Part shown: positions 11,497-63,366 of the stretch, in pieces | How the letters are laid out: each line of letters begins with the position of its first letter | Numbering within the stretch: the stretch's first letter is position 1 | Notes under the pieces: model-generated | Told to the model about the DNA's origin: nothing | Seen by the model: only the letters and a program-made list of their open reading frames with translations | The model's database searches: none | Translations under genes and position numbers: made by a program | Virus record (IMG/VR): IMGVR_UViG_3300032285_002884 | Origin: a virus | Direction: 5' to 3' (one strand) | DNA: 64,000 bases

Positions 11497-14400
11497 ATGC
11501 CTATTACCACGAACCTCAGCGTCTCTCCATATTTTGATGACTTCGATCCGGCGAAAGAGTACTACAAGATCTTGTTTAAGCCCTCAGTGGCTGTCCAGAC
11601 TCGAGAGCTCAATCAGCTGCAGACGACTCTTCAGAACCAGATCGAGCGCTTTGGTAACAACATCTACAAGCGCGGCACGATCATCGACGGCTGTAACTTC
11701 GTATTCTACAGCAACTATCCCTATGCTAAGCTCGTCGACCAAGAGCTAGATGGAACTCCTACAAATCCAGCTAACTATCTAAACCACTTCGTTAAGAACA
11801 GCGCCAACCTTATGGCCTATGTTCTCAACTACACCGTAGGCTATGAGTCAACCAATCCAGACCTTAGCACCCTATATGTTCGATACATCAACAGCGGTAC
11901 TTCTGGAAACTCCTCGGCTTTCTCGGTAGGTGACACTCTTACCGTATACGAAAGCAACAACTCGATCGGCAAGACACAGATCGTCAACGGCGGAGGCAAC
12001 TTCAGCAACGCCGACAGTCTCGTCTTTGTCTCGTCTATCTTGGTAACTCCTACGTCGACAGCTGCGTTCACGGTCGGTGAGAAGATCACTCAGTCTACCA
12101 CCGCGAGCAGGGCGACGATCGTCTCGGTAGATACCTCTACGATTCAGGGCAGCGTCATCCTCGGTCTCAAGCCGTTCTCAAACAGCACGCAGAACGACTT
12201 AACAAACTTAGCGACGCCGGTATCTACTTGGCAGTTCTCAAACAACTTTGGCATCACTGGATCGAGCAGCGGCGCTACCGGCACGGTCTCCGACATCATC
12301 GGTTCCGGAGCAGCAGGCTATCTCACGACCGATACGCAGAACGGAACAGTACAGCAGCTGACTATAACCAGTGGCGGATCAAACTACTACTCGGCTCCTT
12401 ACCTGACCATTCGTCAGTCCTCAGCGTCTGCCGCAGGCAACTACTCTGCCCTGAACCTATCTGCGTTCAACTACATCGCACAGGTCAAGGTATCGAGCAA
12501 CATCGACGCCATCGGCAACGGCTACGCCTTCGGCGTCACCAGCGGCATCATCTACAAGAACGGCTACTTCTTAAACGTCGATCCGCAGACCGTAATCGTA
12601 ACCAAGTACAGCAACTCTCCGAATAACATCTCAATCGGCTTCACGGCCGTAGAGTCGATCGTAAACTACAACGTCGACCCTTCTCTGCTAGACAACGCAA
12701 CGGGCACCTTCAACGAGGTAGCTCCTGGCGCCGATCGTCTCAAGATCGTCCCTACCCTTCTAGTAGTAAACACAGACGTGGCTCAGGCAAACGCAGAGTT
12801 TCTAAGCATCGTTTCTTTCTCGGAAGGTTACCCTTACAAGCAGAACCAGCAGACTCAGTTCAACTCGATCTCTGACGAGATGGCTCGCAGGACTGCCGAG
12901 TCAGCTGGCAACTTTGCAACCAATAGGTTCCAGTCTACCTCTAGGTCGCCCCTCAACTCAAGCGTCGAAGCTAATACGTTCTCAGTCATCGTCGATCCAG
13001 GACAGGGATACATCTCAGGCTACAGGGTAGAGACCCTGAGCAACTATTCTGCCGACATTAAAAAAGGTATCGACTACGATTACTCATATGGGGCAGGAAT
13101 CACCGCTACATACGGTAACTACATCGACGTCATACAGCTCGGCGGCGTGTTCCAGTTCAGCACGGGCGATCAGGTAACTCTATACGATACCCCTGCTTAC
13201 TTCGCCAACAGCAGCTACTCTACGGGAACTATATCACCTGTAGGCAACCCGATCGGTACAGCTAACATTCGTCAGCTTATCCACATCTCCGGCGCTCAGG
13301 GAGACCCGCTAGCTAAGTACAGGATGTTCCTTTTCAACGTCAAGATGAATACTGGCATCTCTTTCTCGACAATAAAGAGCGTATACTATAACAACGTATC
13401 AGCCGGTTATAAGGGCATCGCCGACGTAGTGACCGTATCTATCAGCAGCCAAGCTGGTCAGACTCTTGCGAACAGCGCAGTCCTATCTTCTAACAGCAAG
13501 CTTATATTCCAGTCTGGATTCAAGTCACTTCGTGCCGCTAACAACATCACATATCTAGCAAGGTCTCTTTCGAACAGCTCATTAACTATCGGCAACAGCA
13601 GCTCGAGTGTCACGACCATCACTCTGACTAGCCCTGAAAAGTTCCCTTACCAGAACAACTATACCCTGTCGTATGATGATAAGAACGACATCACCATCGT
13701 ACCTCTCAATGCCGGTCTAACAGTCACTCCTTCGCTCGGCGGAACGGTATCGGCTAACAGCTCTAACTTGATCATGGTCGGTACGAGCACTACGTTCACC
13801 GCACAGAATGCAGACGGTCTAGCTACTGGAGACTACGTCTCAATCTCTGCCAACTCAACCGGCGGTGTCTCGATCAGAAAAGTCGTGTCTGTAAACAGCG
13901 ACACGTCTATCACCCTCGACGCTGCCCCTGCCTTCACCAACTCTTCAGCGGTGATCAGCAGGTACTATCCGCGGAACGTTCCTTTCCCTATCGCGAGCGC
14001 TAATGCGCGTGACAACTTCGTAATCAATACGAACTCGACTGCTACTAGCCTCAACATCTATCTAAATATGAACTTTACTGCGACTGGTAGCTCAAACGTC
14101 GTGATTACGTATCCTGTATTCAGGAACGGTGTTCAGCCTACGTCTAAGGTCACTAACCGCGACATCTTCGTTAAGCTGAGCCTCGCAAACAACGTAGCAG
14201 GTGTAGCGGGTCCTTGGTGTCTCGGCATCCCAGATATCTTTAGACTCAAGAAAGTCTACATGAGTGACAACTTCTCAGTGTCAGACTCTGACTCGGACGT
14301 CACTGATCAGTTCTATATCGATCATAACCAGAACACCGACTTCTACGATCATGGATTCTTGTATCTCAAGAGCAAGGCGTCTCTAGCTCTCTCGACCGCT

Positions 14401-16053
14401 AACTGGCTTCTAGTGCAGCTCGACGCGTTCACTGCGTCTGGTGCGTCACTCTACACTGTTTCTTCTTATGTAAATCCTGATCTAGCAACTAGGTTCACCA
14501 ACGACTCACTCCCTCTCTCGAGTCTAGTAAGCGGAAGCGCGCCGAACACACTCGAGATTCCTGAGATGTTCTCGGATACTGGCGGGTACTATGATCTGAT
14601 CGATACTATCGACTTCAGGCCTCGCGTAGTCAACACCGCGGTACTTACTACGATTCAGGCTAACTCGACGATTAACCCAGCCTATACCACTAACTTTGGA
14701 ACGACCAGCGATCCTACTAATGATAAGAAGTTTCCAGTGTCTGGAACTGGCGTCAACTTTGACGCGTCGTTCTTCATGGGAAGAGCCGACCTTGTCTTAG
14801 TAAATACCAATAACCAGATATCGATACTTGCAGGCAAGGCATCATCTGGTGCTACCTATAAAGTCCCATCTACACCGAAGAACAGCATGCCTATCAATGT
14901 CATGGTCGTGCCTCCGTATCCTGGACTTCCATTCCAGAGGTCTCAGCAGATTGCAGACATCTTGTCGACGGGCGTAGCTAGCGAGAAGTTTAGTTTCCAG
15001 AGAAATAACAAGCATACCATCACTACCAAGTACAGCGACTCTGTTATCCAAAGCTATCAGCCGGCTGGATATACGATGGCTAACATCGGAACGCTTGAGA
15101 GGAGGATCTCTGCTCTCGAGTACTACGTCGCGTTGTCTTCTCTTGAAGGAAGCATTAAAGATCTAACGATTCCAAGCTCTGTATCTTTTGGAATCAATAG
15201 GTTCAAGTTCGGCTTCTTTGTCGACGACTTCTCTACTACAAAGTACTCTGATCTAAAGAACCCAGAGTTCTATGCAGCCGTATCCAACAGCTTCGTGACG
15301 CCTCCGGTAGACACTCACATCGTTAAGTGGAAGCCTACCTGGCCAGTCGCTTATACGGAATACAGTCTCGTAAGTCAGTCACTCGCTACCGTGACAAACG
15401 TCGTCTCAAATGTTCAGCCTATCATCTACAACGGGATAGTTACTCTACTTGATCCTGACTATCTTGAAGTAAACACGTACTCTAAGCTACACAAGATGGT
15501 CCAACAGATCTGGCAGGGTAATCGCGTCCACGTCAAGATTAAGGGTCTAAAGCCTTCTACTGTACATTCTATTAAGTTAGATGACAAAGATGTGGCAAAT
15601 AATATAATCGTGGTCAACTCAGGTTTCTACCCTAATACATACAGGTGTGGCGTGCTCGGTGGAACTTTCCTGACAGACACTAAGGGGCAGATTGAGTTCT
15701 ACATGAACATAAAGCTTGATGAGACAGTACTCCTAGCAGACAGCGTTCTAGTGATGCACATGAAGGGAGCTACAGTAGATCCTGGTAACAAGCTGTTCAA
15801 AGTATTCAACACAGACAATACGTCACTCGCATCGTTCTTCTTGAAGCCTAAAAGAGCAGTTGCCCAGCCTGCTGATAGTGACGACAGAGATCGAGGAGGG
15901 GACCGCGACAATCGCGGACCAGAAGTATCTTCTGAACCTAGTTCTGAAAAATCTGAATCTAGCTCTGATAGCTCAAGCGGCTCAAAAAGTACAGGTACGA
16001 AAGAAGCTGGTGGAAACTACGGAGCTACTTCTGATGGTAATGCTTTCGCTTAA
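11497..16053 (+). CDS. Large virion structural protein (DUF4815/VrlC-like), N-terminal part
   Basis: NLSVSPYFDDFD..KEYYKILFKP..AVQTRELNQLQ, APGADRLKI, YTMxxIGxLERRI and RFKFGFFVDDF motifs. Confidence 0.75.
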   Translation: MPITTNLSVSPYFDDFDPAKEYYKILFKPSVAVQTRELNQLQTTLQNQIERFGNNIYKRGTIIDGCNFVFYSNYPYAKLVDQELDGTPTNPANYLNHFVKNSANLMAYVLNYTVGYESTNPDLSTLYVRYINSGTSGNSSAFSVGDTLTVYESNNSIGKTQIVNGGGNFSNADSLVFVSSILVTPTSTAAFTVGEKITQSTTASRATIVSVDTSTIQGSVILGLKPFSNSTQNDLTNLATPVSTWQFSNNFGITGSSSGATGTVSDIIGSGAAGYLTTDTQNGTVQQLTITSGGSNYYSAPYLTIRQSSASAAGNYSALNLSAFNYIAQVKVSSNIDAIGNGYAFGVTSGIIYKNGYFLNVDPQTVIVTKYSNSPNNISIGFTAVESIVNYNVDPSLLDNATGTFNEVAPGADRLKIVPTLLVVNTDVAQANAEFLSIVSFSEGYPYKQNQQTQFNSISDEMARRTAESAGNFATNRFQSTSRSPLNSSVEANTFSVIVDPGQGYISGYRVETLSNYSADIKKGIDYDYSYGAGITATYGNYIDVIQLGGVFQFSTGDQVTLYDTPAYFANSSYSTGTISPVGNPIGTANIRQLIHISGAQGDPLAKYRMFLFNVKMNTGISFSTIKSVYYNNVSAGYKGIADVVTVSISSQAGQTLANSAVLSSNSKLIFQSGFKSLRAANNITYLARSLSNSSLTIGNSSSSVTTITLTSPEKFPYQNNYTLSYDDKNDITIVPLNAGLTVTPSLGGTVSANSSNLIMVGTSTTFTAQNADGLATGDYVSISANSTGGVSIRKVVSVNSDTSITLDAAPAFTNSSAVISRYYPRNVPFPIASANARDNFVINTNSTATSLNIYLNMNFTATGSSNVVITYPVFRNGVQPTSKVTNRDIFVKLSLANNVAGVAGPWCLGIPDIFRLKKVYMSDNFSVSDSDSDVTDQFYIDHNQNTDFYDHGFLYLKSKASLALSTANWLLVQLDAFTASGASLYTVSSYVNPDLATRFTNDSLPLSSLVSGSAPNTLEIPEMFSDTGGYYDLIDTIDFRPRVVNTAVLTTIQANSTINPAYTTNFGTTSDPTNDKKFPVSGTGVNFDASFFMGRADLVLVNTNNQISILAGKASSGATYKVPSTPKNSMPINVMVVPPYPGLPFQRSQQIADILSTGVASEKFSFQRNNKHTITTKYSDSVIQSYQPAGYTMANIGTLERRISALEYYVALSSLEGSIKDLTIPSSVSFGINRFKFGFFVDDFSTTKYSDLKNPEFYAAVSNSFVTPPVDTHIVKWKPTWPVAYTEYSLVSQSLATVTNVVSNVQPIIYNGIVTLLDPDYLEVNTYSKLHKMVQQIWQGNRVHVKIKGLKPSTVHSIKLDDKDVANNIIVVNSGFYPNTYRCGVLGGTFLTDTKGQIEFYMNIKLDETVLLADSVLVMHMKGATVDPGNKLFKVFNTDNTSLASFFLKPKRAVAQPADSDDRDRGGDRDNRGPEVSSEPSSEKSESSSDSSSGSKSTGTKEAGGNYGATSDGNAFA

Positions 16054-51701: not shown

Positions 51702-53414
51702 GTGGCTATAGTTTTTCATCATATACGCTATAAGAACTTCCTTTCCACCGGCAACGCGTTTACTGAGCTCGAGCTCGACAAGTCCAGCACCACGCTCATC
51801 ATCGGTGAGAACGGTGCAGGCAAGAGCACGATCCTCGACGCGCTGTCGTTCGTGCTGTTCAACAAGCCGTTCAGGAAAGTGAATAAGGGACAGCTCATCA
51901 ACTCTATCACTCGCAAGGACCTGCAGGTAGAGGTAGAGTTCACCATCGGACAGAACAGGTACCACGTCATCCGCGGCGTGAAGCCTAACCTGTTCGAGGT
52001 CTACATGAACGGTAAGCTGCTCAACCAGTCTTCCGATGTCCGCGACTACCAAGAGATCCTCGAGAAGCAGATCCTCAAGATCAACCACAAGTCGTTCTGT
52101 CAGGTGGTCGTGCTGGGCTCTGCCTCGTTCGTCCCATTCATGCAGCTGCCTACCGGCCAGCGCCGTGAGATCATCGAGGACCTTCTCGACCTGCAGATCT
52201 TCACGACCATGAACATGATCCTCAAGCAGAAGGCAGCCGAGAACGTCAACGACATCTGGAAAGCAGAGAAGGACAAGGACCTCGTCGAGGAGAAGATCAA
52301 GCTCGTCAGGGAGCACATGGCCGAGATCCAGAAGAACAGTGAGAAGCTCATCAAGGAAAAGAAAGAGCGTCTCAAGTCTACCGACTTCGAGATCTCTAAG
52401 TTCATCGAGAAGAAGTTTGAGATCGACCGCGACATCGAGAAGCTGAGTGAGAAGATCCTTGACGAAGACGCCATGAGTAAGAGAGTAAACAAGGTCTCAA
52501 AGCTCAAGCACCAGCTCGAGGCAAAGATCGCCAACTTAAACAACGACATCGAGTTCTTAAACAACCACGAGAACTGCCCTACCTGTCAGCGCAACATCGA
52601 TGAGGGCTTCAAGGCCGAGTCTATCGACAAGAAGAACGAGAACATCGCTGAGGTCAGCGCTGGACTGTCTCAGTTGACTGCCGAGTACGATAAGGTCAAC
52701 TCTCGTATCTCTGAGATCATGGAGATCCATTCAGACATCAACGCCAAGAGGATGGAGCTGCATCGAGTACTCACGAAGATCAGCAGCCTCGAGGAGTATA
52801 AGGCTCAGATCCAAGAAGAGATCGACTCGATCAAGGTGACCGAGAAAGACAAGGACACCAGCAAGCTCGACGAGCTGGTATTGGATCTTGAGAACAGCAA
52901 GCAGCTCATCGTCAGACTATCGGAAGATCAAGTACTCTATCAAGCTGCTGGCGTGCTGTTGAAAGACGGCGGCATCAAGTCGCGCATCATCAAGCAGTAC
53001 ATCCCTATCATCAACAAGCTCATCAGCAAGTACCTGAGCGCCATGGACTTCTTCGTCCAGTTCGAGCTCGACGAGAACTTCAACGAGACGATCAAGTCCC
53101 GCTACAGGGACGAGTTCAGCTATGCTTCGTTCTCGGAGGGTGAGAAGATGAGGATCAACTTGGCAGTACTGTTCACGTGGCGAGCAGTAGCCAAGCTTCG
53201 CAACTCGGTCAACACCAACATCCTTATCATGGACGAGGTCTTCGACAGCTCACTTGATGCCAGCGGTACCGAGGAGTTCATGAAGATATTAAACCAGTTG
53301 ACAAACGACGCAAACGTGTATATAATAAGCCATAAGACGGACCAGATCGTTGACAAGTTCGACAACGTTATTAGGTTCGAGAAGCACAAGAACTTTAGCA
53401 AGATGGTGGCGTGA
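51702..53414 (+). CDS. gp46: Recombination ATPase subunit (Rad50/SbcC-like)
   Basis: KNFLSTGN, GENGAGKST, CPTC zinc hook, FSEGEK signature, MDEVFD, ISH. Confidence 0.95.
   Translation: MAIVFHHIRYKNFLSTGNAFTELELDKSSTTLIIGENGAGKSTILDALSFVLFNKPFRKVNKGQLINSITRKDLQVEVEFTIGQNRYHVIRGVKPNLFEVYMNGKLLNQSSDVRDYQEILEKQILKINHKSFCQVVVLGSASFVPFMQLPTGQRREIIEDLLDLQIFTTMNMILKQKAAENVNDIWKAEKDKDLVEEKIKLVREHMAEIQKNSEKLIKEKKERLKSTDFEISKFIEKKFEIDRDIEKLSEKILDEDAMSKRVNKVSKLKHQLEAKIANLNNDIEFLNNHENCPTCQRNIDEGFKAESIDKKNENIAEVSAGLSQLTAEYDKVNSRISEIMEIHSDINAKRMELHRVLTKISSLEEYKAQIQEEIDSIKVTEKDKDTSKLDELVLDLENSKQLIVRLSEDQVLYQAAGVLLKDGGIKSRIIKQYIPIINKLISKYLSAMDFFVQFELDENFNETIKSRYRDEFSYASFSEGEKMRINLAVLFTWRAVAKLRNSVNTNILIMDEVFDSSLDASGTEEFMKILNQLTNDANVYIISHKTDQIVDKFDNVIRFEKHKNFSKMVA
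53298..53326 (+). promoter_or_regulatory. Intragenic sigma70-type promoter at the end of gp46
   Basis: TTGACA-17-TATAAT. Confidence 0.7.
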
Positions 53415-54479: not shown

Positions 54480-55052
54480 GTGTTTGGATTTGTTTACATA
54501 TGGTATGATAAAAAACATACAAGATATTATATTGGTTCTCATAAAGGTCATTTAGATGATGGATATATCTCAAGTTCAACTTGGATGAAAAATGCTTATA
54601 AGAGACGACCATTAGACTTTAGAAGAAAGCTCTTATCAATTATTATGACTAATAAAGAAGATCTTTTACAAGAAGAACAAAAATGGCTTAACTTTATAAA
54701 AGATGATGAGCTTGGAAAGAAATACTATAATCTAAAGAAAAAAGCTGCAGGTGGTTTTTCAAAGTGTGCTATTCAAAAAAGTATAGAATCAAGAAAAGGA
54801 AAATCTTTACCATTAGAATGGAAACAAAATCAAAGTAAAGCATTGAAAGATAAGTCTTGGACAGATAAACGAAGAGAATCTCAAGTTGGATCTTACACAA
54901 AAAGATTGACATATGAACACAATGGTGTTATAATTGGAAATATAGATCAAGCTATCGAGTATTCCGGAAAATCTAGAAAAACTATTGATAGATGGTGCAC
55001 TGAAAATTCTAGTTATTCCAAAAAAGAATGGAGAAAATATTATGAGTCGTGA
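54480..55052 (+). mobile_element. Free-standing GIY-YIG homing endonuclease
   Basis: FGFVYIWYD..RYYIGSH..YYN; AT-rich; paralogue of the genes at 29648 and 46189. Confidence 0.82.
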
Positions 55053-55446
55053 CTGGGCAAAAGATATATGGAGGATGCATAAGCACTATGGAGTACATCC
55101 CGTTATCGATAAGATGGATGATGAGACCCTTGCAAAGTTTCTCGAGTTTCGCATCAATTTTCTTCAAGAAGAACTCGACGAGCTCCGTAGAGCTGAAGGG
55201 GCCGAGGACGTAGTAGACGCCCTCATCGACCTCTGCGTCGTGGCCATCGGTACACTCGACGGCTTCGGCGTCGACTCGCACAGGGCTTGGGACGAGGTAC
55301 TCGATGCCAACATGAAGAAAGAGACAGGAGTCAAGGCGTCTCGCCCTAACCCTCTCGGCCTTCCCGACCTCATCAAGCCAGAAGGCTGGACTGCCCCGTC
55401 CCACGAGGGTAACCATGGTCTCTTTGCACGGGTGAAGTATGACTAG
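55042..55446 (+). CDS. MazG-like all-alpha NTP pyrophosphohydrolase (candidate dCTPase/dUTPase)
   Basis: FLQEELDEL..EDVVDALIDL..V..ANMKK..LIKPEGW. Confidence 0.75.
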   Translation: MSRDWAKDIWRMHKHYGVHPVIDKMDDETLAKFLEFRINFLQEELDELRRAEGAEDVVDALIDLCVVAIGTLDGFGVDSHRAWDEVLDANMKKETGVKASRPNPLGLPDLIKPEGWTAPSHEGNHGLFARVKYD

Positions 55447-55939
55447 GAGCGAGCAGATCGAACAGCTCGGCGCGCTCGGCGAGGAGGTCGTAAGACGTCT
55501 CTTGGTCGAGAAGCACGTCGTCGAGATGAGCGACTATAAGTACGACGCCGTCAAGGACATGAAGGCCGATGACAAGACCGTAGAGGTAAAGACTCTCGTC
55601 CTGATCAAGAAGTTCGAGTCCTTCTGTCTAGGCAAGAAGCAGTGGAAGAAGTGCGACGAGGTTGACCGTCTTTTCTTCGTTCGAGTACCCGAGAGTGAGA
55701 CCGACCCGATCGTGGTCTATGAGTCCGAGAACCCACGAAGCTTCCGCTCGATGCAGTACAACGGCGACTGGTGCAGAATGTATCCGTTGACAAATATGAA
55801 GATCTATGGTACTATAAACAATAACGAATTATCTAAGCAGATGTGTGACCTCTCACCCTCAAAGTACAAGGGATTTAAGTATGACAGAACGCGAATCGAT
55901 CAAGGTACTGCAGGAATGCATCGACCTGCAGCGTCGTAA
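55439..55939 (+). CDS. Hypothetical protein, possible PD-(D/E)XK nuclease fold
   Basis: LGALGEEVV...D...VEVKT pattern. Confidence 0.45.
   Translation: MTRSEQIEQLGALGEEVVRRLLVEKHVVEMSDYKYDAVKDMKADDKTVEVKTLVLIKKFESFCLGKKQWKKCDEVDRLFFVRVPESETDPIVVYESENPRSFRSMQYNGDWCRMYPLTNMKIYGTINNNELSKQMCDLSPSKYKGFKYDRTRIDQGTAGMHRPAAS
55787..55815 (+). promoter_or_regulatory. Intragenic sigma70-type promoter upstream of the hydroxymethylase genes
   Basis: TTGACA-17-TACTAT with a TG extended -10. Confidence 0.6.
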
Positions 55940-56285
55940 GTCCAACGACTACCAGAACCCACACTCGACTATCAAGCAGGCCGACTACTACCCATCCGGC
56001 TGCGCTACCATCCTCGACGTCATGCAGGCCAAGGTGCTTCGCATGCGCTCGGTCATCGAGGCCATGCAGCACGACCCCAACTACAGCCCTAACTTTGAGT
56101 CGCTCGAAGACTCAGCTAAAGACTTGGCAAACTATGCCTCGTTCTTCGTCGCGTACTCTCGCAGCAAGGTCGACGGCCAAGACCCGTCGCGTGACTTCTT
56201 GAACCGCAAGAAACTTGAAGCCGGTGGCCCGACCGGCGCTCCAGGCTTCGGCGTTAACTACATCAAGACTCCGGGAAACCTCTGA
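55881..56285 (+). CDS. Nucleotide-modification-associated helical protein (DUF1599-like)
   Basis: KSNDY...KVLR...ESLEDSAKDLANYA. Confidence 0.6.
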   Translation: MTERESIKVLQECIDLQRRKSNDYQNPHSTIKQADYYPSGCATILDVMQAKVLRMRSVIEAMQHDPNYSPNFESLEDSAKDLANYASFFVAYSRSKVDGQDPSRDFLNRKKLEAGGPTGAPGFGVNYIKTPGNL

Positions 56286-56947
56286 TGGCTCAGAACTACG
56301 CATTCACAGTCAATACGATTCGTCGCGTGTTCAAGGACATGCTCGCTCGCGAGGACTTCGTCACCGATAAGACCGGCGTAAAGATGCTCGAGATGGTCGG
56401 TGCTCAGTTCAATGCAAACGAGCCAGCTATCTTTGGCGAGCCTAACCAAGACTACATCGAGCGCGAGCTTCAGTGGTATCGCTCGATGTCTCTCAACGTC
56501 AACAGCATTCCTGGCGGCCCTCCAGCTATCTGGAAACAGGTGGCGACTCCCGACGGTATGATCAACTCGAACTACGGCTACCTCATCTGGTCGTATGAGA
56601 ACGAGATGCAGTACGAGAGCGTCTTGACTGAGCTGATGAAGAACCCTAACTCTCGTCGAGCCGTCATGATCTACACTCGTCCCACCATGCACAGGGACTA
56701 CAACACCGATGGCATGTCTGACTTCATCTGCACCAACGCCGTGCAGTACATGATCCGCGATGATAAGTTACAGGTGGTAGTCCAGATGCGGTCCAACGAC
56801 GTAGTCTACGGCTACCGCAACGACTGGGCATGGCAGCGCTACGTGCAGAACATGTTGGCGACCGACCTAGACGTCGGACTCGGTGACATCTTCTGGCAGG
56901 TCGGATCACTCCACGTCTACGAGAGGCACTTTGACCTTGTCAAGTAA
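56285..56947 (+). CDS. gp42: dCMP hydroxymethylase (T4 gp42 orthologue)
   Basis: Colinear with T4 gp42 as recalled: DKTGVK, RELxWY, INSNYG, SRRxxMIYTRP, DGMSDFxCTN (catalytic Cys), MRSNDVVxGxRND (cytosine-specifying Asp), GSLHVY. Confidence 0.92.
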   Translation: MAQNYAFTVNTIRRVFKDMLAREDFVTDKTGVKMLEMVGAQFNANEPAIFGEPNQDYIERELQWYRSMSLNVNSIPGGPPAIWKQVATPDGMINSNYGYLIWSYENEMQYESVLTELMKNPNSRRAVMIYTRPTMHRDYNTDGMSDFICTNAVQYMIRDDKLQVVVQMRSNDVVYGYRNDWAWQRYVQNMLATDLDVGLGDIFWQVGSLHVYERHFDLVK

Positions 56948-57437
56948 GTCATGGCGATGGACGCAGAACTACCTCAAGCTAGCCCAACACATCTCGACTT
57001 GGTCAAAGGACCCGAGCACCAAGATCGGCGCAGTCGCCGTCGGCGGTCAAGGTCAGATCCTAGCACAGGGGTACAACGGGTTCCCTCGTGGAGTCGACGA
57101 CAGCGAGCGTCGACTCAGCGACAGAGAAGTCAAGTATAAGTTTGTAGTCCACGCTGAACAGAACTGTATCTACAATGCCACACTCAATGGAACTAGTCTC
57201 AACGGCGCAGATCTTTACGTTCATGGTCTTCCTGTATGCTCTGAATGCGCTAAGGGGATCATCCAAGTAGGTATCAAGAACGTCTTTATCTGTCATCCAG
57301 CGGACATCGCACCCATCTGGCAGGACGCATATAAGTTCACCAAGCAGATGTTCAAGGAAGCTGGCGTATCAGCGGTCAGACACGACTTTCACACCGGAGA
57401 GATCATCGATGTCGTCAGTAAGCCAGAAGCGTGGTAA
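56931..57437 (+). CDS. cd: dCMP deaminase (start uncertain)
   Basis: SKDPSTKIGA, GYNGFP, HAEQN, PVCSECAK. Confidence 0.9.
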   Translation: MTLSSKSWRWTQNYLKLAQHISTWSKDPSTKIGAVAVGGQGQILAQGYNGFPRGVDDSERRLSDREVKYKFVVHAEQNCIYNATLNGTSLNGADLYVHGLPVCSECAKGIIQVGIKNVFICHPADIAPIWQDAYKFTKQMFKEAGVSAVRHDFHTGEIIDVVSKPEAW

Positions 57438-57795
57438 GGTACTCATCGTAGGTATCAACCCTTCCAGCTCCACTAAAGTAAAGCCCTGCATCACTCTCAA
57501 GCGACTCTACGGCTGGGCAGACTATCTCGGTCTTAAGCACTTCTCGTTCGTCAACTGCATCGGTCGTCCGGGCAGCTACTCGTTCAAAGACGTCGAGTTC
57601 GACATGCTCAGTGAGTGTGCAGCTGGCTACGATCGGGTACTCGCCCTCGGTGGCTTTCCATCCAAGGCTCTCAAGAAGCTCGGCATCGAGCACTTCACTT
57701 TACCCCATCCTTCAGGTCTAAATAGGAAGCTGAACGATAGAGAGTATGAACTGAGTGTCTTGAAGGAGTGCAGTGACTATGTTTTCCAAGGGTAG
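57409..57795 (+). CDS. Minimal uracil-DNA-glycosylase-superfamily protein
   Basis: VLIVGINPS and LPHPSGLNR motifs. Confidence 0.7.
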   Translation: MSSVSQKRGKVLIVGINPSSSTKVKPCITLKRLYGWADYLGLKHFSFVNCIGRPGSYSFKDVEFDMLSECAAGYDRVLALGGFPSKALKKLGIEHFTLPHPSGLNRKLNDREYELSVLKECSDYVFQG

Positions 57796-58663
57796 AGTTC
57801 TCGTAACTGGATGTACAGGCTACATCGGTTCCCATACCGTGAAGGCTCTGAAGCGAGAGGGCTTTGAGGTCCACGGGATCGACTTAGACCGTAGGTCACC
57901 AAACAACGTCCGCAAGTACGTCGACAAGCTCATGTTCGGTGACGTCTACGACTTCACGTGGGCATACAGATACGACGCGGTAGTACACCTGGCAGCCTTC
58001 ATCTCGGTAGAGGAGTCGGTCAACAAGCCACTCGACTACTTCTATAACAACACTATAGGTACTCAGTGGCAGCTGCACTTCAACGGCACGAACGGCTGTG
58101 AGAACTTCGTCTTCGCTTCTACAGCCGCTGCCTTCGACCCAGTGTCTCCCTATGCTCAGTCCAAGCTCATGGCCGAGAGCCTAGTGAAGAACATGGCAAA
58201 GAACTACACTATCTTGCGGTTCTTCAATGTGGCCGGAAACGACGGCGAGTTCAGACAGACCGGCAACGCGACACACCTCATCCGCATAGCAGCCGAGACA
58301 GCGGCCGGCAAGAGACCGTTCATGAACCTGTACGGCACCGACTGGGATACTCCAGACGGAACCTGCGTACGGGACTATATCCATGTGATGGATCTAGTTG
58401 ACGCAATTGTGAAATCGGTATATAATCCTAAGAATACTCCGTATGAGTGCATCGGCAGCGGCTCCGGCTACAGCTGTCGAGAGGTCATAGACACCATGAA
58501 GCGTGTCAGCGGTAGAGACTTTATAGTGAACGACGCGCCTAGACGTGCTGGTGATCCAGCGATCATCTCGATCCCTGTTGGACAGAAGAAGTCAGGCTAT
58601 ATAGATTGCAAGAGGACACTTGAGGACATGTGTCTCAGCGCTTATAATATGGAGCTAAAATGA
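57773..58663 (+). CDS. galE: UDP-sugar 4-epimerase (GalE-like)
   Basis: VLVTGCTGYIGSH, HLAA.ISVEESV..PLDY, YAQSK, LRFFN, DGTCVRDYIHV.DL, RRAGDP. Confidence 0.9.
   Translation: MTMFSKGRVLVTGCTGYIGSHTVKALKREGFEVHGIDLDRRSPNNVRKYVDKLMFGDVYDFTWAYRYDAVVHLAAFISVEESVNKPLDYFYNNTIGTQWQLHFNGTNGCENFVFASTAAAFDPVSPYAQSKLMAESLVKNMAKNYTILRFFNVAGNDGEFRQTGNATHLIRIAAETAAGKRPFMNLYGTDWDTPDGTCVRDYIHVMDLVDAIVKSVYNPKNTPYECIGSGSGYSCREVIDTMKRVSGRDFIVNDAPRRAGDPAIISIPVGQKKSGYIDCKRTLEDMCLSAYNMELK
58398..58426 (+). promoter_or_regulatory. Intragenic sigma70-type promoter upstream of the glycosyltransferase
   Basis: TTGACG-17-TATAAT. Confidence 0.65.
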
Positions 58664-59769
58664 AGAAGATTCTAATCACGGGAATGAACGCAGCTCAGTG
58701 CAAGAAAGACTACTTCTTGGTACAAGAACTTCAGGTAGTCCCATCACACTACTCACTCATCCGCTGTCTCGAAGACATGGGATACGAGGTAGAGCAGAGG
58801 GCCGTGGACCTCGGTGAGAACCTCGACCACTACGACGACGTCATCGTCTACATCCACAGTATTCAGTCGTTCTGTCAACGTCTGTACGGTGGTCTCTATG
58901 CCATCTCACAGCGTCCCAACTGCATCATCGCGTTCGACGACTGGCAAGTAGACCAGATCTACTCGAGCTTTGGTCAGTACCTCAAGGACCTCGAGAACGT
59001 CGACAACGGCAAGGCCTTTCGTGAGTACCTGCTTGAGTTGTATCAGGGTGCAGAAGACAAGGAGACCATCTCCTCTTATGCCAGCGAGTACATCGACGCG
59101 GTTCATACTGTCTTGTCAAAAAACAACCGTCTGCTCGTCTCGGCGTTCGACCGAGGCGACCTAGACCGACTCGACCTCGGCTGGGACAAGAGTCGAGTGT
59201 TCCGCTTCAACCCCAACCCATACCACCTCAACCGCACACCCGAAAACAACTACGGTGAGCATGCTTCCATCATGAGCTTCGCCGACAACGACGTGAATCC
59301 CGCGAGCAAGATCCGAGCATGGAACTTCGCCTCGCTGGTACAGAAGAAGACTCGCAAGTGGCTTACTCAGCAGAACGACGGGAGCTGGAGCTGGGAGATC
59401 AACTTCTACGGAGCTCGTCGAGGAGAAGAAGTCAAGCAGACTCGTCTCACTGAGCCCGACATGTGCCGCATCTACAACTCACAGTGGGGTTGCCTGATGC
59501 CTGGATACTTCCACTCCGGTTCTGGCTGGTGGCGCGCTCGCCCGCTTCAGGTAGCAGACGCGGGCTCGATCTTGATCTGCGACGACAAGGAAGGTGCTGT
59601 CTACGGCGAAGCCTATGTCGGACTTAGGACCAAGGACGTCGAGCAGATGTCGCTTGATGAGCTCATCAAGACTGCACGACTCCAGAAAGAGTGTCTGTAT
59701 GATAACCACCCACTCGACAAGGCAGTCGAGCGGGCAGAGCTCAGCGCGATCTTGGAGGCGTCTAAGTGA
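58660..59769 (+). CDS. GT-B DNA glycosyltransferase, distant T4 beta-glucosyltransferase-like
   Basis: By-eye alignment to the T4 BGT N-terminus: VPS..L...EDMGYEV, LDHYDDVIVY..SI..F, and AFDD at the position of the BGT catalytic Asp. It is 369 aa and lies between galE and glf. Confidence 0.6.
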   Translation: MKKILITGMNAAQCKKDYFLVQELQVVPSHYSLIRCLEDMGYEVEQRAVDLGENLDHYDDVIVYIHSIQSFCQRLYGGLYAISQRPNCIIAFDDWQVDQIYSSFGQYLKDLENVDNGKAFREYLLELYQGAEDKETISSYASEYIDAVHTVLSKNNRLLVSAFDRGDLDRLDLGWDKSRVFRFNPNPYHLNRTPENNYGEHASIMSFADNDVNPASKIRAWNFASLVQKKTRKWLTQQNDGSWSWEINFYGARRGEEVKQTRLTEPDMCRIYNSQWGCLMPGYFHSGSGWWRARPLQVADAGSILICDDKEGAVYGEAYVGLRTKDVEQMSLDELIKTARLQKECLYDNHPLDKAVERAELSAILEASK

Positions 59770-60764
59770 AGTACCTAGTAGTAGGAGCAGGACTCTCGGG
59801 ACTCACCATCGCCCGTGAGCTAGCAGAGGCTGGTCACGACATCACGGTGATCGACAAGCGCCACCACGTAGCCGGCAACGCGTACGACTACACCGGTCAG
59901 CACGGGATTCGCGTCCACGAGTACGGCCCTCACCTCTTCCATACCAACAACGAGACCGTGTTCAACTACCTGAGTCGCTTCACCGAGTGGCTGCCATACG
60001 AGCACAAGGTCAAGGCCCTGCTCAAGAGCGGTGAGTTCGTCGACTTCCCTCCCAATAGACTCACCAAGGAGATCGTCGGACCTGAGAACGTCATCGACAC
60101 CTTCTATCGTCCCTATACGAAGAAGATGTGGGGCAAGACGATCGAGGAGCTGAACCCCGAGATCCTCAATCGAGTTCCAGGACGCGATGACGACGAGGAC
60201 AGGTACTTTCCTAATGATAAGTATCAGTTCTTGCCTAAAGACGGCTATACCCAGATGGCCAATAACATGCTCGATCATCCCAATATACGTCTCCGTCTTC
60301 GTACTCACTTCTTGAAGAGAATGCAGGAAGACTACGACCACGTATTCAACAGTCAGCCGATCGACGAGTACTTTGACTTCATGCTCGGTCACCTCGACTA
60401 CCGTTCTATCAAGTTCCACACCAAAGTAGTCGAGGTACCTCGAGCGTTTCCAGTGACCACTGTTAACTTCACACACGACGGACCATATACTAGGATCACC
60501 GAGTGGAAGAACCTTCCTGGACACGGCGACAACCCATACGCTACAGTCTTGACTGCAGAAGAGCCCTGCGACTACAAACATAATAAGTTCGAGCGCTACT
60601 ATCCAGTAAACGATGACATAAATAAAGAACGATATGAGTCATACAAGAAGATGAGCTCATTGAACCCGAAGATCACCTTCATCGGCCGCTGTGGCATGTA
60701 CGTCTACATAAATATGGATCAAGCGGTCAACTCAGCACTCCGAATTGCAATGGATTATAAGTGA
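59766..60764 (+). CDS. glf: UDP-galactopyranose mutase
   Basis: GAGLSG FAD motif, AGNAYD, HEYGPHLFHT, YTKKMWG, DRYF, YTRITEWK, YYPV, GRCGMYVYINMDQ. Confidence 0.92.
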   Translation: MKYLVVGAGLSGLTIARELAEAGHDITVIDKRHHVAGNAYDYTGQHGIRVHEYGPHLFHTNNETVFNYLSRFTEWLPYEHKVKALLKSGEFVDFPPNRLTKEIVGPENVIDTFYRPYTKKMWGKTIEELNPEILNRVPGRDDDEDRYFPNDKYQFLPKDGYTQMANNMLDHPNIRLRLRTHFLKRMQEDYDHVFNSQPIDEYFDFMLGHLDYRSIKFHTKVVEVPRAFPVTTVNFTHDGPYTRITEWKNLPGHGDNPYATVLTAEEPCDYKHNKFERYYPVNDDINKERYESYKKMSSLNPKITFIGRCGMYVYINMDQAVNSALRIAMDYK

Positions 60765-61964
60765 ATGGATATTAAGCACGCGACCATTGTGCCGCTCATC
60801 GGCGGCGAGACACTAGGTCAAGAGCAGGCCTTTGGTAGTCGACCAGACTACCTCATGTCCTACGAGGCCTTCTGGGCCAACGACAAGCACATCGTGAACC
60901 ACTACGACAACGAGGTTCCGTATTTAGTGCTTGACAAGAATATGAAACCGAGTTATAATGTAGATGTGGTCGGCTCTGTCTGTCCATGCGCCGGCCTGTC
61001 TCAGCTGTCTCATGGGTACGGCGACCACAATCAGAATAACAAGTGGATGATCGACACTACTCGATACGTCCTCGAAGACCTTCAGCCTAAGGTACTGTGG
61101 GGAGAGAACGCTCCTGGATTTGCTGGTAAGATCGGTGACAACATCCGCAACCAGCTTCGTCAGATCGGTAAGGACAACGGCTACACGATGTCGGTCTATC
61201 GTACCAAGACTCTGCTCCATGGAGGACCTCAGGTACGTAACCGCTCGTTCTACTTCTTCTGGAAGAGTGACAAGACCCCGATGTTCTCGTACTTCAACCG
61301 CCCACACTCAAAGATCGAGGACGTCATCCTCGGCGCCAAGGGCAACACGCAGCGCGACGTCATCAACAAGAAGACGCCTACCGACGACCCATACTATCGC
61401 TACGTACTCGAGAAGATCCACGGGGGCATCAGCCACCGTCAGTTCTTCGACACCATGGACTCTATGAAGGTGCGTGAGAACGACACTCAGGCGTACATCG
61501 AGCGCCACGGCGATACCTACATGCAGGTAGCTGAGTGGATGTTAGCCAACGGCTTTCCTAAAGAGGCTGAGAAGTGCAAGTACAAGCACGACAAGCTCGC
61601 CGCTGGAGGGTCGATCATGCGTCGTGGGACGATCATACCTAAGGACTACATCGGCGCCTTCGTAGGCCACTATCCGACTAACCTGACACATCCCTACGAG
61701 GATCGCTATATAAACTATCGTGAGGCCATGACGATCATGGGCTTGCCAGACAACTTCGAGCTTCTCGACCCCACCAAGAGCGCAAACCATATCTGTCAGA
61801 ACGTTCCAGTACAGACGGCTGCAGACATGGCCGGTGAGATCAAGAAGTGGCTCCATGGGGAGCTCGAGGAGGTAGATACCGACTACCTATATCAGAACAA
61901 CCTGTCAAGGACATATGAGATTGAAGCAAAGAGTGGAGGAGACATTTCGCAATGGGTAATGTGA
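60765..61964 (+). CDS. C5-cytosine methyltransferase-like protein with degenerate motif I
   Basis: CPCAGLS (IV), GENAP (VI), PQVRNR (VIII), RYINYREAMTIMGLPDNF (IX) and QNVP (X); motif I reads VPLIGG. Confidence 0.75.
   Translation: MDIKHATIVPLIGGETLGQEQAFGSRPDYLMSYEAFWANDKHIVNHYDNEVPYLVLDKNMKPSYNVDVVGSVCPCAGLSQLSHGYGDHNQNNKWMIDTTRYVLEDLQPKVLWGENAPGFAGKIGDNIRNQLRQIGKDNGYTMSVYRTKTLLHGGPQVRNRSFYFFWKSDKTPMFSYFNRPHSKIEDVILGAKGNTQRDVINKKTPTDDPYYRYVLEKIHGGISHRQFFDTMDSMKVRENDTQAYIERHGDTYMQVAEWMLANGFPKEAEKCKYKHDKLAAGGSIMRRGTIIPKDYIGAFVGHYPTNLTHPYEDRYINYREAMTIMGLPDNFELLDPTKSANHICQNVPVQTAADMAGEIKKWLHGELEEVDTDYLYQNNLSRTYEIEAKSGGDISQWVM
60931..60959 (+). promoter_or_regulatory. Intragenic sigma70-type promoter
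   Basis: TTGACA-17-TATAAT. Confidence 0.65.
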
Positions 61965-62392
61965 ATAATAGATGGGAAATGATACACGACAGAGACAGCT
62001 GGCCTGTAACCGGCGCAGTCGGTCCGGTCACTGACTATTCTGCTTACCTCAAGAGCATCGAAGGCGCAAACGGACCAGCTGGTCCTGCCAACGTCAGCAC
62101 GGGTACTGCTATCAGGTACAAGTACGACGAGGGACGATATATAAAAGAGATCACCGAGTACGTCAACGACACGTACGGTGAGCACTACTCACGAAATAAG
62201 TTTCAGGCCACCGAGTTCATCATGGACTCAGGCCACGGCACGGGATTCTGCATGGGCAACGTAATGAAGTACGCCCAGCGATACGGCCGCAAGGGATCGC
62301 GCGAAGACTGGCGCAAGGACCTCATGAAGGTCATCCACTACGCGATGATGCAGTTATACGTTCACGATGTTATTGACAAGGAGAAGAAATAA
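61952..62392 (+). CDS. DUF3310/T7 gp1.7-like putative nucleotide kinase
   Basis: TYGEHY...GFCMGNVMKYAQRYGRKG...DLMKVIHYA. Confidence 0.7.
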   Translation: MGNVNNRWEMIHDRDSWPVTGAVGPVTDYSAYLKSIEGANGPAGPANVSTGTAIRYKYDEGRYIKEITEYVNDTYGEHYSRNKFQATEFIMDSGHGTGFCMGNVMKYAQRYGRKGSREDWRKDLMKVIHYAMMQLYVHDVIDKEKK

Positions 62393-62394
62393 TC

Positions 62395-63366
62395 ATGGAG
62401 ATCAACGTTCCAGTCGAGGAGCTTCGCAAGTACAAGCTCTTCATCGCTACGCCGATGTATGGCGGCCAGTGCGCGGGTATGTTTTCCCGCTCAATCGCCG
62501 ACCTATCGGCACTCTGCACACACTACGGCATCCCGCTTCAGTTCTACTTTCTGTTCAACGAGTCGCTGATTACCCGCGCACGCAACTACTGCTGTGACGA
62601 GTTCATGCGCTCGGACGCTACTCACTTGATGTTCATCGACTCGGACATCGGGTTCAACCCACACGACGTCATCGCCCTCTTGGCAATGTCTGTCATGGAA
62701 GGTAATGAGTATGACGTCATCGGCGGTCCCTACCCTAAGAAGTGCATCAGCTGGGAGAAGATCAAGCTCGCAGTCGACAAGGGCATCGCGGACCAAGACC
62801 CGAACGTCCTCGAGAACTTCGTCGGCGACTACGTCTTCAACCCGAAGGGTAACCAGCAGTCCATCTCTATCTCGGAACCGGTCGAGGTCCTTGAGATCGG
62901 TACGGGCTTCATGATGGTCAAGAAAGAGACCATGCAGCGCTTTGCCGACGCCTTCCCACAGTACAACTATCGTCCTGACCACGTCCGCACCGCTCAGTTC
63001 GACGGCTCGCGCGAGATCATGATGTACTTCCAGGCCGAGGTTGACAAATTAGACTTTGGGGTATATTATGAGAACCAGATGAAGCGCATCAGCGAGCTTC
63101 GTCTGAACGATCCAGATAAGGTCAAGGCTGAGGTCGATAAGGTAATCGCCGCAGCCAACGAGATCAACAGCAAGAAGTCTAAGCGCTACCTCTCGGAAGA
63201 CTACTGGTTCTGCCAGAAGATCCAAGAGCTCGGCATGAAGACTTGGTTCTGCCCATGGATGAAGATGCAGCACGTCGGCACCTACATCTTCGGTGGATCT
63301 CTTGCAGATCTCGCAATGATCGGCGCGGCAGCTACTGCCGACCCAGCTGCCCTAAGCAAGAAATAA
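62395..63366 (+). CDS. GT-A-fold glycosyltransferase-like protein
   Basis: IATPMYGG, NESLITRARN, HLMFIDSDI (DxD), GGPYPKK, GTGFMM, YLSEDYWFC, HVG. Confidence 0.75.
   Translation: MEINVPVEELRKYKLFIATPMYGGQCAGMFSRSIADLSALCTHYGIPLQFYFLFNESLITRARNYCCDEFMRSDATHLMFIDSDIGFNPHDVIALLAMSVMEGNEYDVIGGPYPKKCISWEKIKLAVDKGIADQDPNVLENFVGDYVFNPKGNQQSISISEPVEVLEIGTGFMMVKKETMQRFADAFPQYNYRPDHVRTAQFDGSREIMMYFQAEVDKLDFGVYYENQMKRISELRLNDPDKVKAEVDKVIAAANEINSKKSKRYLSEDYWFCQKIQELGMKTWFCPWMKMQHVGTYIFGGSLADLAMIGAAATADPAALSKK
63041..63069 (+). promoter_or_regulatory. Intragenic sigma70-type promoter upstream of gp45
   Basis: TTGACA-17-TATTAT. Confidence 0.6.

Follow-up and report, generated by a model that had tools for sequence, protein, structure and literature searches.

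Glucosylated 5-hydroxymethylcytosine (5hmC) of bacteriophage T4 is the classical glycosylated DNA base. Glycosylating hydroxymethylcytosine is the classical way in which phages escape restriction and CRISPR; bacteria respond with modification-dependent nucleases, and the outcome of the contest depends on which sugar is attached. The DNA of phages RB69 and DLP3 contains arabinofuranosyl-5-hydroxycytosine (5hoC), and in Rhizobium phage RL38J1, which has hexosyl-5hoC, a phage-encoded UDP-galactopyranose mutase (Glf) was proposed in 2026 to supply uridine diphosphate (UDP)-galactofuranose (UDP-Galf) for DNA glycosylation (PMC13326640). A 2023 preprint describes phage glycosyltransferases (GTs) that act on 5hmC and require a partner epimerase, and notes in bulk GT-B enzymes encoded beside ThyS, a methyltransferase, deoxycytidine monophosphate (dCMP) deaminase and gp45 in metaviromes (bioRxiv 10.1101/2023.12.21.572611). 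The block of genes considered here occupies positions 55042–63366 of a 64,000-nucleotide stretch (the window), which is the last 64 kb of IMG/VR record IMGVR_UViG_3300032285_002884, a T4-like virus record of 150,648 bp rated 91% complete. It combines a gp42-type dCMP hydroxymethylase with a UDP-hexose 4-epimerase (GalE), a GT-B enzyme and Glf, and it is best read, with a confidence a little above even, as a pathway to galactofuranosyl-5hmC DNA.

Literature searches brought up no account of galactofuranosyl- or galactosyl-5hmC, and none of a function of Glf in the T4-like phages of Aeromonas. The preliminary description of the block had known of no described galactofuranosyl-5hmC pathway; this stands, but the provision of UDP-Galf by Glf for 5hoC in RL38J1 and the epimerase-dependent GTs acting on 5hmC had already been published. 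The genes on which the proposed pathway turns are the following:

56285–56947, + strand: gp42-type dCMP hydroxymethylase (PDB code 1b49, E 7.8e-82)
57773–58663, + strand: GalE-like UDP-hexose 4-epimerase, a short form of 296 residues (TIGR01179, E 1.6e-67)
58660–59769, + strand: GT-B glycosyltransferase, predicted DNA 5hmC O-glycosyl (galactofuranosyl) transferase
59766–60764, + strand: UDP-galactopyranose mutase (Glf), a short form of 332 residues (PF03275, E 8.2e-57)

The block would be a module that a T4-like phage expresses early to hypermodify its DNA. Judging by its strong homology and the signatures of its active site, the gp42 homolog would convert dCMP to 5-hydroxymethyl-dCMP (hm-dCMP); a kinase would phosphorylate hm-dCMP, the nucleotide would be incorporated during replication, and a MazG-type pyrophosphatase may deplete dCTP. 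Judging by family membership, GalE would convert UDP-glucose of the host to UDP-galactopyranose (UDP-Galp) and Glf would convert the latter to UDP-Galf. The GT-B enzyme, as its fold, gene order and co-inheritance suggest, would then attach the furanose to 5hmC in DNA at its hydroxymethyl group, a step parallel to that of T4 beta-glucosyltransferase (BGT) with glucose, to yield galactofuranosyl-5hmC. Sister phages with a GT of the other clade have neither Glf nor GalE and presumably draw on another donor, such as UDP-glucose. The sugar therefore appears to be exchanged as a cassette of the GT with Glf, and in some cases GalE, as would suit diversification in the face of nucleases that depend on the modification. 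This central proposal is supported by the comparative genomics set out below.

The gp42 homolog aligns with 1b49 over residues 7–219 and is 58% identical to T4 gp42 (tblastn); the segments SDFICTN and MRSNDVVYGYRND are present in the 1b49 alignment. As in T4, the protein keeps the catalytic Cys (DFICTN) and Asp residues at the positions of ThyA residues 169 and 177 (RSND...RND), the Asp in place of N177 being that of dCMP selectivity, and an acidic residue occupies the position of L143. The hydroxymethylase with catalytic Cys and cytosine-selective Asp of the preliminary description is thus borne out by the structural match and by the motifs. Many phage thymidylate synthase (TS) homologs once taken as 5hmC makers produce 5hoC, and such 5hoC synthases have Asn at the position of Asp169 of E. 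coli ThyA (PMC13326640). As the window TS homolog keeps Asp169 together with the dCMP-selecting Asp, the acceptor base is predicted to be 5hmC. The possibility that this enzyme makes 5hoC was considered and ruled out by the D169 signature. Every gp42 encoded beside a related GT shares the 5hmC signature, RSND...(R/K)ND.

The GT matches no Pfam or NCBIfam family and only phrog_14998 among the families searched. An AlphaFold model built on 30 homologs (predicted local distance difference test, pLDDT, 87) has the GT-B fold and the size of BGT, and the best solved structural match of this predicted structure is T4 BGT, although other GT-B enzymes follow closely (glycogen synthase 17.3, T4 alpha-glucosyltransferase about 16). 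A profile search of PDB sequences did not retrieve BGT or anything relevant, and a direct hhalign comparison with T4 BGT is weak (E 0.027). The "BGT-like" label given earlier therefore holds for the nearest solved fold and not for the sequence, where no significant similarity was found: the modelled GT resembles BGT in fold, but its sequence does not place it in the BGT family. Asp93 and Asp94, which follow the strand of residues 89–92, are invariant, as is the segment W290-W291-R292. The T4 BGT sequence reads LFTD at what may be the corresponding place, after strand 4, where its Asp100 lies. In BGT, Asp100 is the catalytic Asp, and Arg residues bind the phosphate. The GT family is large, with 594 representative clusters at E <= 1e-3.

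In Glf, an N-terminal FAD-binding Rossmann domain (PF13450, E 8.6e-20) accompanies the PF03275 match, and the protein aligns with solved UDP-galactopyranose mutases across both domains (PDB codes 3hdq, E 4e-70, and 1wam, E 7e-62). The alignment includes the GPH.FHT, Y..K.WG, PYTR, YYP and GR...Y.Y segments, so that the FAD- and substrate-binding segments are matched. The epimerase has TIGR01179 as its best family, its top 30 PDB matches are all UDP-glucose 4-epimerases, and it carries the short-chain dehydrogenase/reductase motifs GxxGxxG (GCTGYIG) and YxxxK (YAQSK).

The gene neighborhood is conserved in relatives. A pattern scan of IMG/VR gave 80 loci with 56 distinct GT sequences, whose gene content was determined by tblastn with the window proteins; for gp42, loci with at least 2.5 kb upstream of the GT were counted. 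The hydroxymethylase lies upstream of the GT in 54 of the 55 informative loci, Glf is present downstream in 41 of 76, and a C5-cytosine DNA methyltransferase (C5-MTase) is found downstream in all but one of 63 (62/63). Where both sides are informative (51 loci), 20 loci have gp42 only, 18 have gp42 and Glf, 12 have gp42, Glf and GalE, and a single one, L087, has Glf and GalE but no gp42 within 10 kb. Among the 31 Glf-positive loci 13 have GalE, whereas none of the 20 Glf-negative loci does. The preliminary description had put forward the linkage of Glf to the GT and gp42 in relatives as a test able to refute its proposal, and this linkage was found; the tie that it drew between GalE and Glf likewise agrees with the occurrence of GalE in Glf-positive loci only. 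When Glf, GalE and the deaminase are absent, as in L009, the GT directly follows gp42, which is the arrangement of 42 and b-gt in T4. The gene order of the block recurs across dozens of independent viral contigs and its arrangement is therefore not due to chance. Locus L087, which has neither gp42 nor the MTase, encodes an epimerase fused to a dATP/dGTP diphosphohydrolase N-terminal domain (13506–14942, PF18909, E 8.5e-24), and a 264-residue open reading frame (ORF) separates its GT from Glf.

Phylogenetic trees connect the type of GT with Glf. On a maximum-likelihood tree of the GT, all Glf-linked enzymes fall on one side of a single branch. In a second analysis, of 46 non-redundant loci and the window, the Glf label changes once on the GT tree (support 100), seven times on the tree of the adjacent MTase, with at least five of these changes forced by well-supported branches, and five times on the gp42 tree. 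A single change on the GT tree as against five to seven on those of the flanking genes indicates that the GT type and Glf are inherited jointly and exchanged between backbones, and such co-inheritance is expected if this clade of GTs needs the product of Glf. An example is L022, whose flanking genes are the next-closest to those of the window (73–89% identity) after the near-identical L010 and L011; it has no Glf, and its GT is merely 59% identical to that of the window. Ten residues, at positions 22, 27, 28, 161, 189, 224, 284, 293, 295 and 296, cleanly separate the two GT clades. Several are beside invariant motifs, namely 224 and, next to WWR, those within 293–296, and A224 and P295 are also present in the distant Glf-linked GTs of phages C48C1 and Aeromonas phage 25. 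These clade-specific residues would be located in the sugar pocket.

Members of the GT family occur in further, divergent lineages. In phage C48C1 (Kyanoviridae), which is the nearest named phage, a TET/JBP dioxygenase (472 residues, PF12851, E 3e-17) is followed by the GT and then by Glf (L001, 7580–11027, OQ984149.1), and no gp42 was found in the C48C1 genome; this cluster is predicted to be a post-replicative version of the sugar cassette. A TET/JBP search of the genome of the window phage gave no match, and neither did its control. In Aeromonas phage 25 the order is reversed, Glf preceding the GT, and a 5hmC-type gp42 is encoded elsewhere in the genome. Matches to the GT and Glf also adjoin in other Aeromonas records, in Stenotrophomonas phage IME13 and in Erwinia phage FBB1, and phiAS4 and 60AhydR15PP have a gp42 match as well; Aes508 is a further cultured Aeromonas phage with gp42 and the pair. 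Phage 44RR2.8t, according to its annotation, has neither the GT nor Glf.

A third setting is provided by Morganella phage Rgz1 and two Providencia phages, in which a member of the GT family that shares 25–27% identity with the Glf-linked GTs (E values as low as 1e-26) is encoded within an arabinose-type cluster like that of RB69. This cluster encodes an SIS arabinose-5-phosphate isomerase, a 549-residue nucleotidyltransferase and a U32 peptidase-like protein, and its TS homolog reads RSQN, the 5hoC (D169N) signature. In Rgz1 (Morganella phage vB_MmoM_Rgz1, L100, 3869–10722) the GT gene is located between those of the arabinose-5-phosphate isomerase and the nucleotidyltransferase/kinase. The arabinosyltransferase of Morganellaceae T4-like phages was reported missing (PMC8056088), and the Rgz1 GT may be this enzyme.

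Members of the GT family thus accompany three different means of hydroxylating a pyrimidine and two ways of making a UDP-furanose, which argues strongly that the acceptor is DNA and gives a hint that furanosyl donors are preferred. A wider generalization, held tentatively and with somewhat less than even confidence, is that these GTs constitute a large unnamed family of DNA-base furanosyltransferases serving gp42, TET/JBP and 5hoC synthase together with the Glf and arabinose routes. On this view the window phage, many T4-like phages from fresh water and cultured Aeromonas phages would all make galactofuranosyl-5hmC, the sugar being swapped as a GT and Glf cassette.

Several observations weigh against the galactofuranosyl-5hmC pathway. 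The identity of the sugar and its ring form are predictions. The Pfam BGT model PF09198 finds nothing in the whole genome at E <= 10, and hhalign with a broader profile matches the GT to BGT over the N-terminal 80 residues only (probability 38%, E 3.4e-4). About 40 residues of the helical domain of Glf are missing, and its TIGR00031 match (E 5e-87, 292.3 bits) does not reach the equivalog cut-off of 303.75; GalE likewise scores 227.7 bits against an equivalog cut-off of 262.3 for TIGR01179, and it has 296 residues where about 330 are typical. Some Glf homologs accept UDP-arabinopyranose (UDP-Arap) or UDP-N-acetylgalactosamine (UDP-GalNAc), and Glf-type mutases acting on other UDP-sugars could give a furanose other than galactofuranose. 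The relatives that lack Glf might, in turn, draw on UDP-Galf of the host. On the nucleotide side, no homologs of T4 gp1 (hm-dCMP/dNMP kinase), of Tmk/Thymidylate_kin or of the gp56 dCTPase were found in the 91%-complete genome, so that full replacement of cytosine is not assured, and the apparently intact C5-MTase suggests that some unmodified cytosine may remain. Matches to AAA_18 proved to be the clamp loader and PhoH.

An unlikely alternative is that the GT-B enzyme attaches a pyranose, glucose or galactose, to 5hmC in the manner of T4 BGT, while Glf and GalE serve something else, for example a further sugar that a different enzyme attaches or a glycan that is not on DNA. It is favored by BGT being the best structural match, by the presence of a GT-A enzyme nearby and by the approximately 40% of related loci that have the GT without Glf, which indicates that the GT family can work without a phage Glf. 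However, Glf and the GT are direct neighbors in three divergent lineages, whichever of the two comes first; the clade of the GT goes with Glf, which is not true of the flanking genes; and the GT-A gene is present with or without Glf and follows the phage backbone.

It is improbable that 5hmC carries a different furanose: either arabinofuranose, with the epimerase acting on UDP-xylose/UDP-arabinose, or N-acetylgalactofuranose, with an epimerase and a mutase accepting UDP-N-acetylhexosamines. The substrate range of Glf homologs mentioned above is compatible with it, as is the related GT that Rgz1 has in its arabinofuranose-type cluster, and RB69 and DLP3 are established examples of phages with arabinofuranosyl cytosines (PMC13326640). 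On the other hand, the best family of the epimerase and all its top solved matches are UDP-glucose 4-epimerases, and the known phage route to arabinofuranose uses different enzymes, none of which is among the families identified in the block. Most Glf-positive loci, moreover, have no phage epimerase, which points to a common host pool as the source of the substrate, with UDP-Galp as the obvious candidate. Least probable is that GalE, the GT and Glf glycosylate virion proteins or a host envelope glycan (e.g. for superinfection exclusion) and stand among nucleotide genes incidentally. In its favor, some temperate phages of Streptococcus and Lactobacillus carry Glf without any connection to DNA modification, and capsid-glycosylating enzymes are among the structural matches of the GT-A protein. 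Against it, gp42 precedes the GT in 54 of 55 loci, and other lineages place the GT after a TET/JBP oxygenase or within a 5hoC/arabinose cluster, so that three different ways of hydroxylating a pyrimidine in DNA are represented.

The remaining genes of the block and its borders are:

54480–55052: homing-endonuclease-like ORF (phrog_314, E 7e-20)
55042–55446, + strand: MazG/PRA-PH-type all-alpha nucleoside triphosphate pyrophosphatase, candidate dCTPase (PF01503, E 1e-6)
55439–55939, + strand: 166-residue protein for which no family was found, possibly PD-(D/E)xK nuclease-like (weak NOV_C match, E 0.026)
55845 or 55881 to 56285, + strand: phrog_1485/DUF1599-like protein (phrog_1485, E 1.3e-11)
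56883–57437, + strand: dCMP deaminase (PF00383, E 2.4e-18)
57409–57795, + strand: small protein of the uracil-DNA glycosylase (UDG) superfamily (PF03167, E 0.0017, below the Pfam cut-off)
60765–61964, + strand: C5-MTase family protein (PF00145, E 3.5e-17)
61952–62392, + strand: DUF3310 protein (PF11753, E 3.2e-10)
62395–63366, + strand: GT-A fold glycosyltransferase with a DSD motif (predicted structure, Foldseek)
from 63386, + strand: gp45 clamp

The ORFs of the preliminary description are all on the + strand at or near the coordinates it gave, and almost all its family labels were upheld, Pfam confirming MazG/PRA-PH, thymidylate synthase, deaminase, NAD-epimerase, GLF, C5 methylase, DUF3310 and gp45. 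The overlaps that it noted between galE and the GT gene and between the latter and glf amount to 4 nucleotides each (58660–58663 and 59766–59769), and glf abuts the MTase gene (60764/60765). T4-type replication genes are present in a T4-like order, the block being preceded by a gp46-like SMC_N ATPase and followed by the gp45 clamp; in relatives, gp44, gp62 and regA come after the clamp. The closest protein relatives are metagenomic, including "uncultured Caudovirales phage UFOVP247", and a megablast search of the block against 50,697 phage records gave no match.

The GT-A protein was modelled with AlphaFold2 (pLDDT 85), and its Foldseek matches at E <= 1e-3 are all GT-A enzymes, headed by STIV A197 (E 8.6e-7), LH3 and GlfT2. 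D82 and D84 of the DxD motif are invariant, and the family profile retrieved no PDB sequences. The gene also lies between gp46 and gp45 in Sinorhizobium phiM12-like phages (L093, 7001–7978) and in Stenotrophomonas phage DLP_6 (L091, 9001–9858), in the latter of which no gp42 was found. It is present irrespective of Glf, and its sequence tracks the phage backbone and not Glf. The GT-A fold assigned earlier is thus confirmed by Foldseek, but the accompanying suggestion that the enzyme extends the DNA sugar was rejected on the position of the gene in phiM12 and DLP_6 and on its backbone-following sequence. For the same reasons the gene is not evidence for a second DNA sugar; it is probably a backbone gene that is not part of the 5hmC module, and its target is possibly not DNA. 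Weaker homologs are found in Synechococcus and Pelagibacter phages.

The C5-MTase scores 63.3 bits against the PF00145 cut-off of 22, and its PDB matches are HaeIII and HhaI. Motifs IV (PC), VI (ENA), VIII (QxRxR) and X (QNVP) are kept, and C73-P74-C75, E114-N115, Q156/R158/R160 and Q345-N346-V347-P348 are invariant in 22 homologs. Motif I (FxGxG) reads PLIGG, its first Gly being replaced, and the N-terminal 60 residues are unmatched by Pfam. Among cultured phages, homologs occur only in cyanophage S-TIM5-like phages, Pseudoalteromonas phage XG4 and Bacillus phage G. That the C5-MTase is nearly always present is surprising, given that such a phage should have little or no unmodified cytosine.

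The UDG-like protein, of 118–130 residues in its family, scores 18.9 bits against the PF03167 cut-off of 24.3, but 14 of 18 family members match PF03167 (best E 4.6e-6), and the atlas neighbors carry UDG; the family profile retrieved no PDB sequences. The motifs GINP(S) and HPSGLNR are invariant and resemble those of the MUG/TDG family. The protein could excise 5-hydroxymethyluracil:G or U:G lesions from 5hmC DNA. In many loci its gene is found between those of the dCMP deaminase and the GT, with or without Glf. For the DUF3310 protein, the label "kinase-like" was abandoned, as its basis is only the PHROG names of multidomain fusion families, and no similarity to kinases or to PDB sequences was detected. 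Nor is there significant similarity to the dGTP_diPhyd_N domain that occupies the position of DUF3310 in L087.

The MazG-like gene lies upstream of gp42 in most relatives, and MazG-type genes also occur in relatives without gp42; the protein shows no similarity to T4 gp56, and its action as a dCTPase is a guess. The phrog_1485/DUF1599-like gene is directly upstream of gp42 and is found in most relatives. Its DUF1599 label proved marginal: the window protein matches phrog_1485 only, with no Pfam DUF1599 match, and the ortholog in L006 has a weak match to PF07659. The true start of the dCMP deaminase is probably downstream of 56883, the ortholog in relatives having 155 residues.

The 166-residue ORF upstream of gp42 matches no Pfam, PHROG or NCBIfam family and shows patchy conservation among relatives (tblastn). 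A D...EVK motif accompanies its weak match to NOV_C, which is restriction-endonuclease-like, and a role as a nuclease against cytosine-containing DNA is speculative. The homing-endonuclease-like ORF is inserted between the denV-like and MazG-like genes and was detected only in the nearest relatives, L010 and L011. Perfect TTGACA-17-TATAAT sequences are located on the + strand at 53298, 54906 and 60931, with matches of 11/12 at 58398 and 63041; several promoter-like matches fall within coding sequence. In all, 20 such sites were found against 9.3 +/- 3.3 expected, which would fit T4-style early promoters for the block.

If the proposed pathway is correct, furanosyl-5hmC would be a new natural DNA base, joining the recently described arabinofuranosyl- and hexosyl-5hoC. 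The comparative pattern suggests that phages may change their DNA sugar via a small cassette, a clade of GT travelling with Glf across backbones. As the gene pair is present in cultured Aeromonas phages, the prediction can be tested by nucleoside mass spectrometry and NMR.

Compared with T4, where gp42 acts with the beta- and alpha-glucosyltransferases, the window phage has a similar hydroxymethylase with the same signature, the same order of gene 42 and the GT, a dCMP deaminase, and the clamp/gp46 region, and its GT has the GT-B fold with BGT as the best solved match. Unlike T4, it encodes its own GalE and Glf, its GT is not of the BGT family by sequence, the C5-MTase, UDG-like and DUF3310 genes are additional, and gp1 and gp56 homologs were not detected.

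The case of RL38J1 and the Pootjesviridae is similar in that a phage Glf is proposed to provide the base-proximal galactose on a cytosine derivative and that a TS homolog makes the acceptor nucleotide (PMC13326640). The acceptor there, however, is 5hoC, made by a D169N synthase and joined to the sugar by an ether link directly at C5, as opposed to the 5hmC signature of the window synthase. In addition, Glf of RL38J1 is encoded far from the GT genes, whereas those of the window overlap, and the RL38J1 transferases are absent among the tblastn matches of the window GT.

RB69 and DLP3 share with the proposed pathway a furanose on a C5-oxygenated cytosine and a phage-made UDP-furanose, and the equivalent cluster of Rgz1 contains a homolog of the window GT. 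The base is different, and the sugar route consists of an arabinose-5-phosphate isomerase, a phosphatase and a kinase/uridylyltransferase; the characterized RB69 and DLP3 transferases show no similarity to the window GT family detectable by tblastn.

In the TET/5mYOX clusters, 5hmC is made after replication from 5-methylcytosine, and no mutase or furanose was reported. As in the proposed pathway, the activity of the GT on 5hmC depends on a partner sugar-nucleotide enzyme (bioRxiv 10.1101/2023.12.21.572611; PMC8256090), and C48C1 represents the TET-GT-Glf form of the cassette found in the window.

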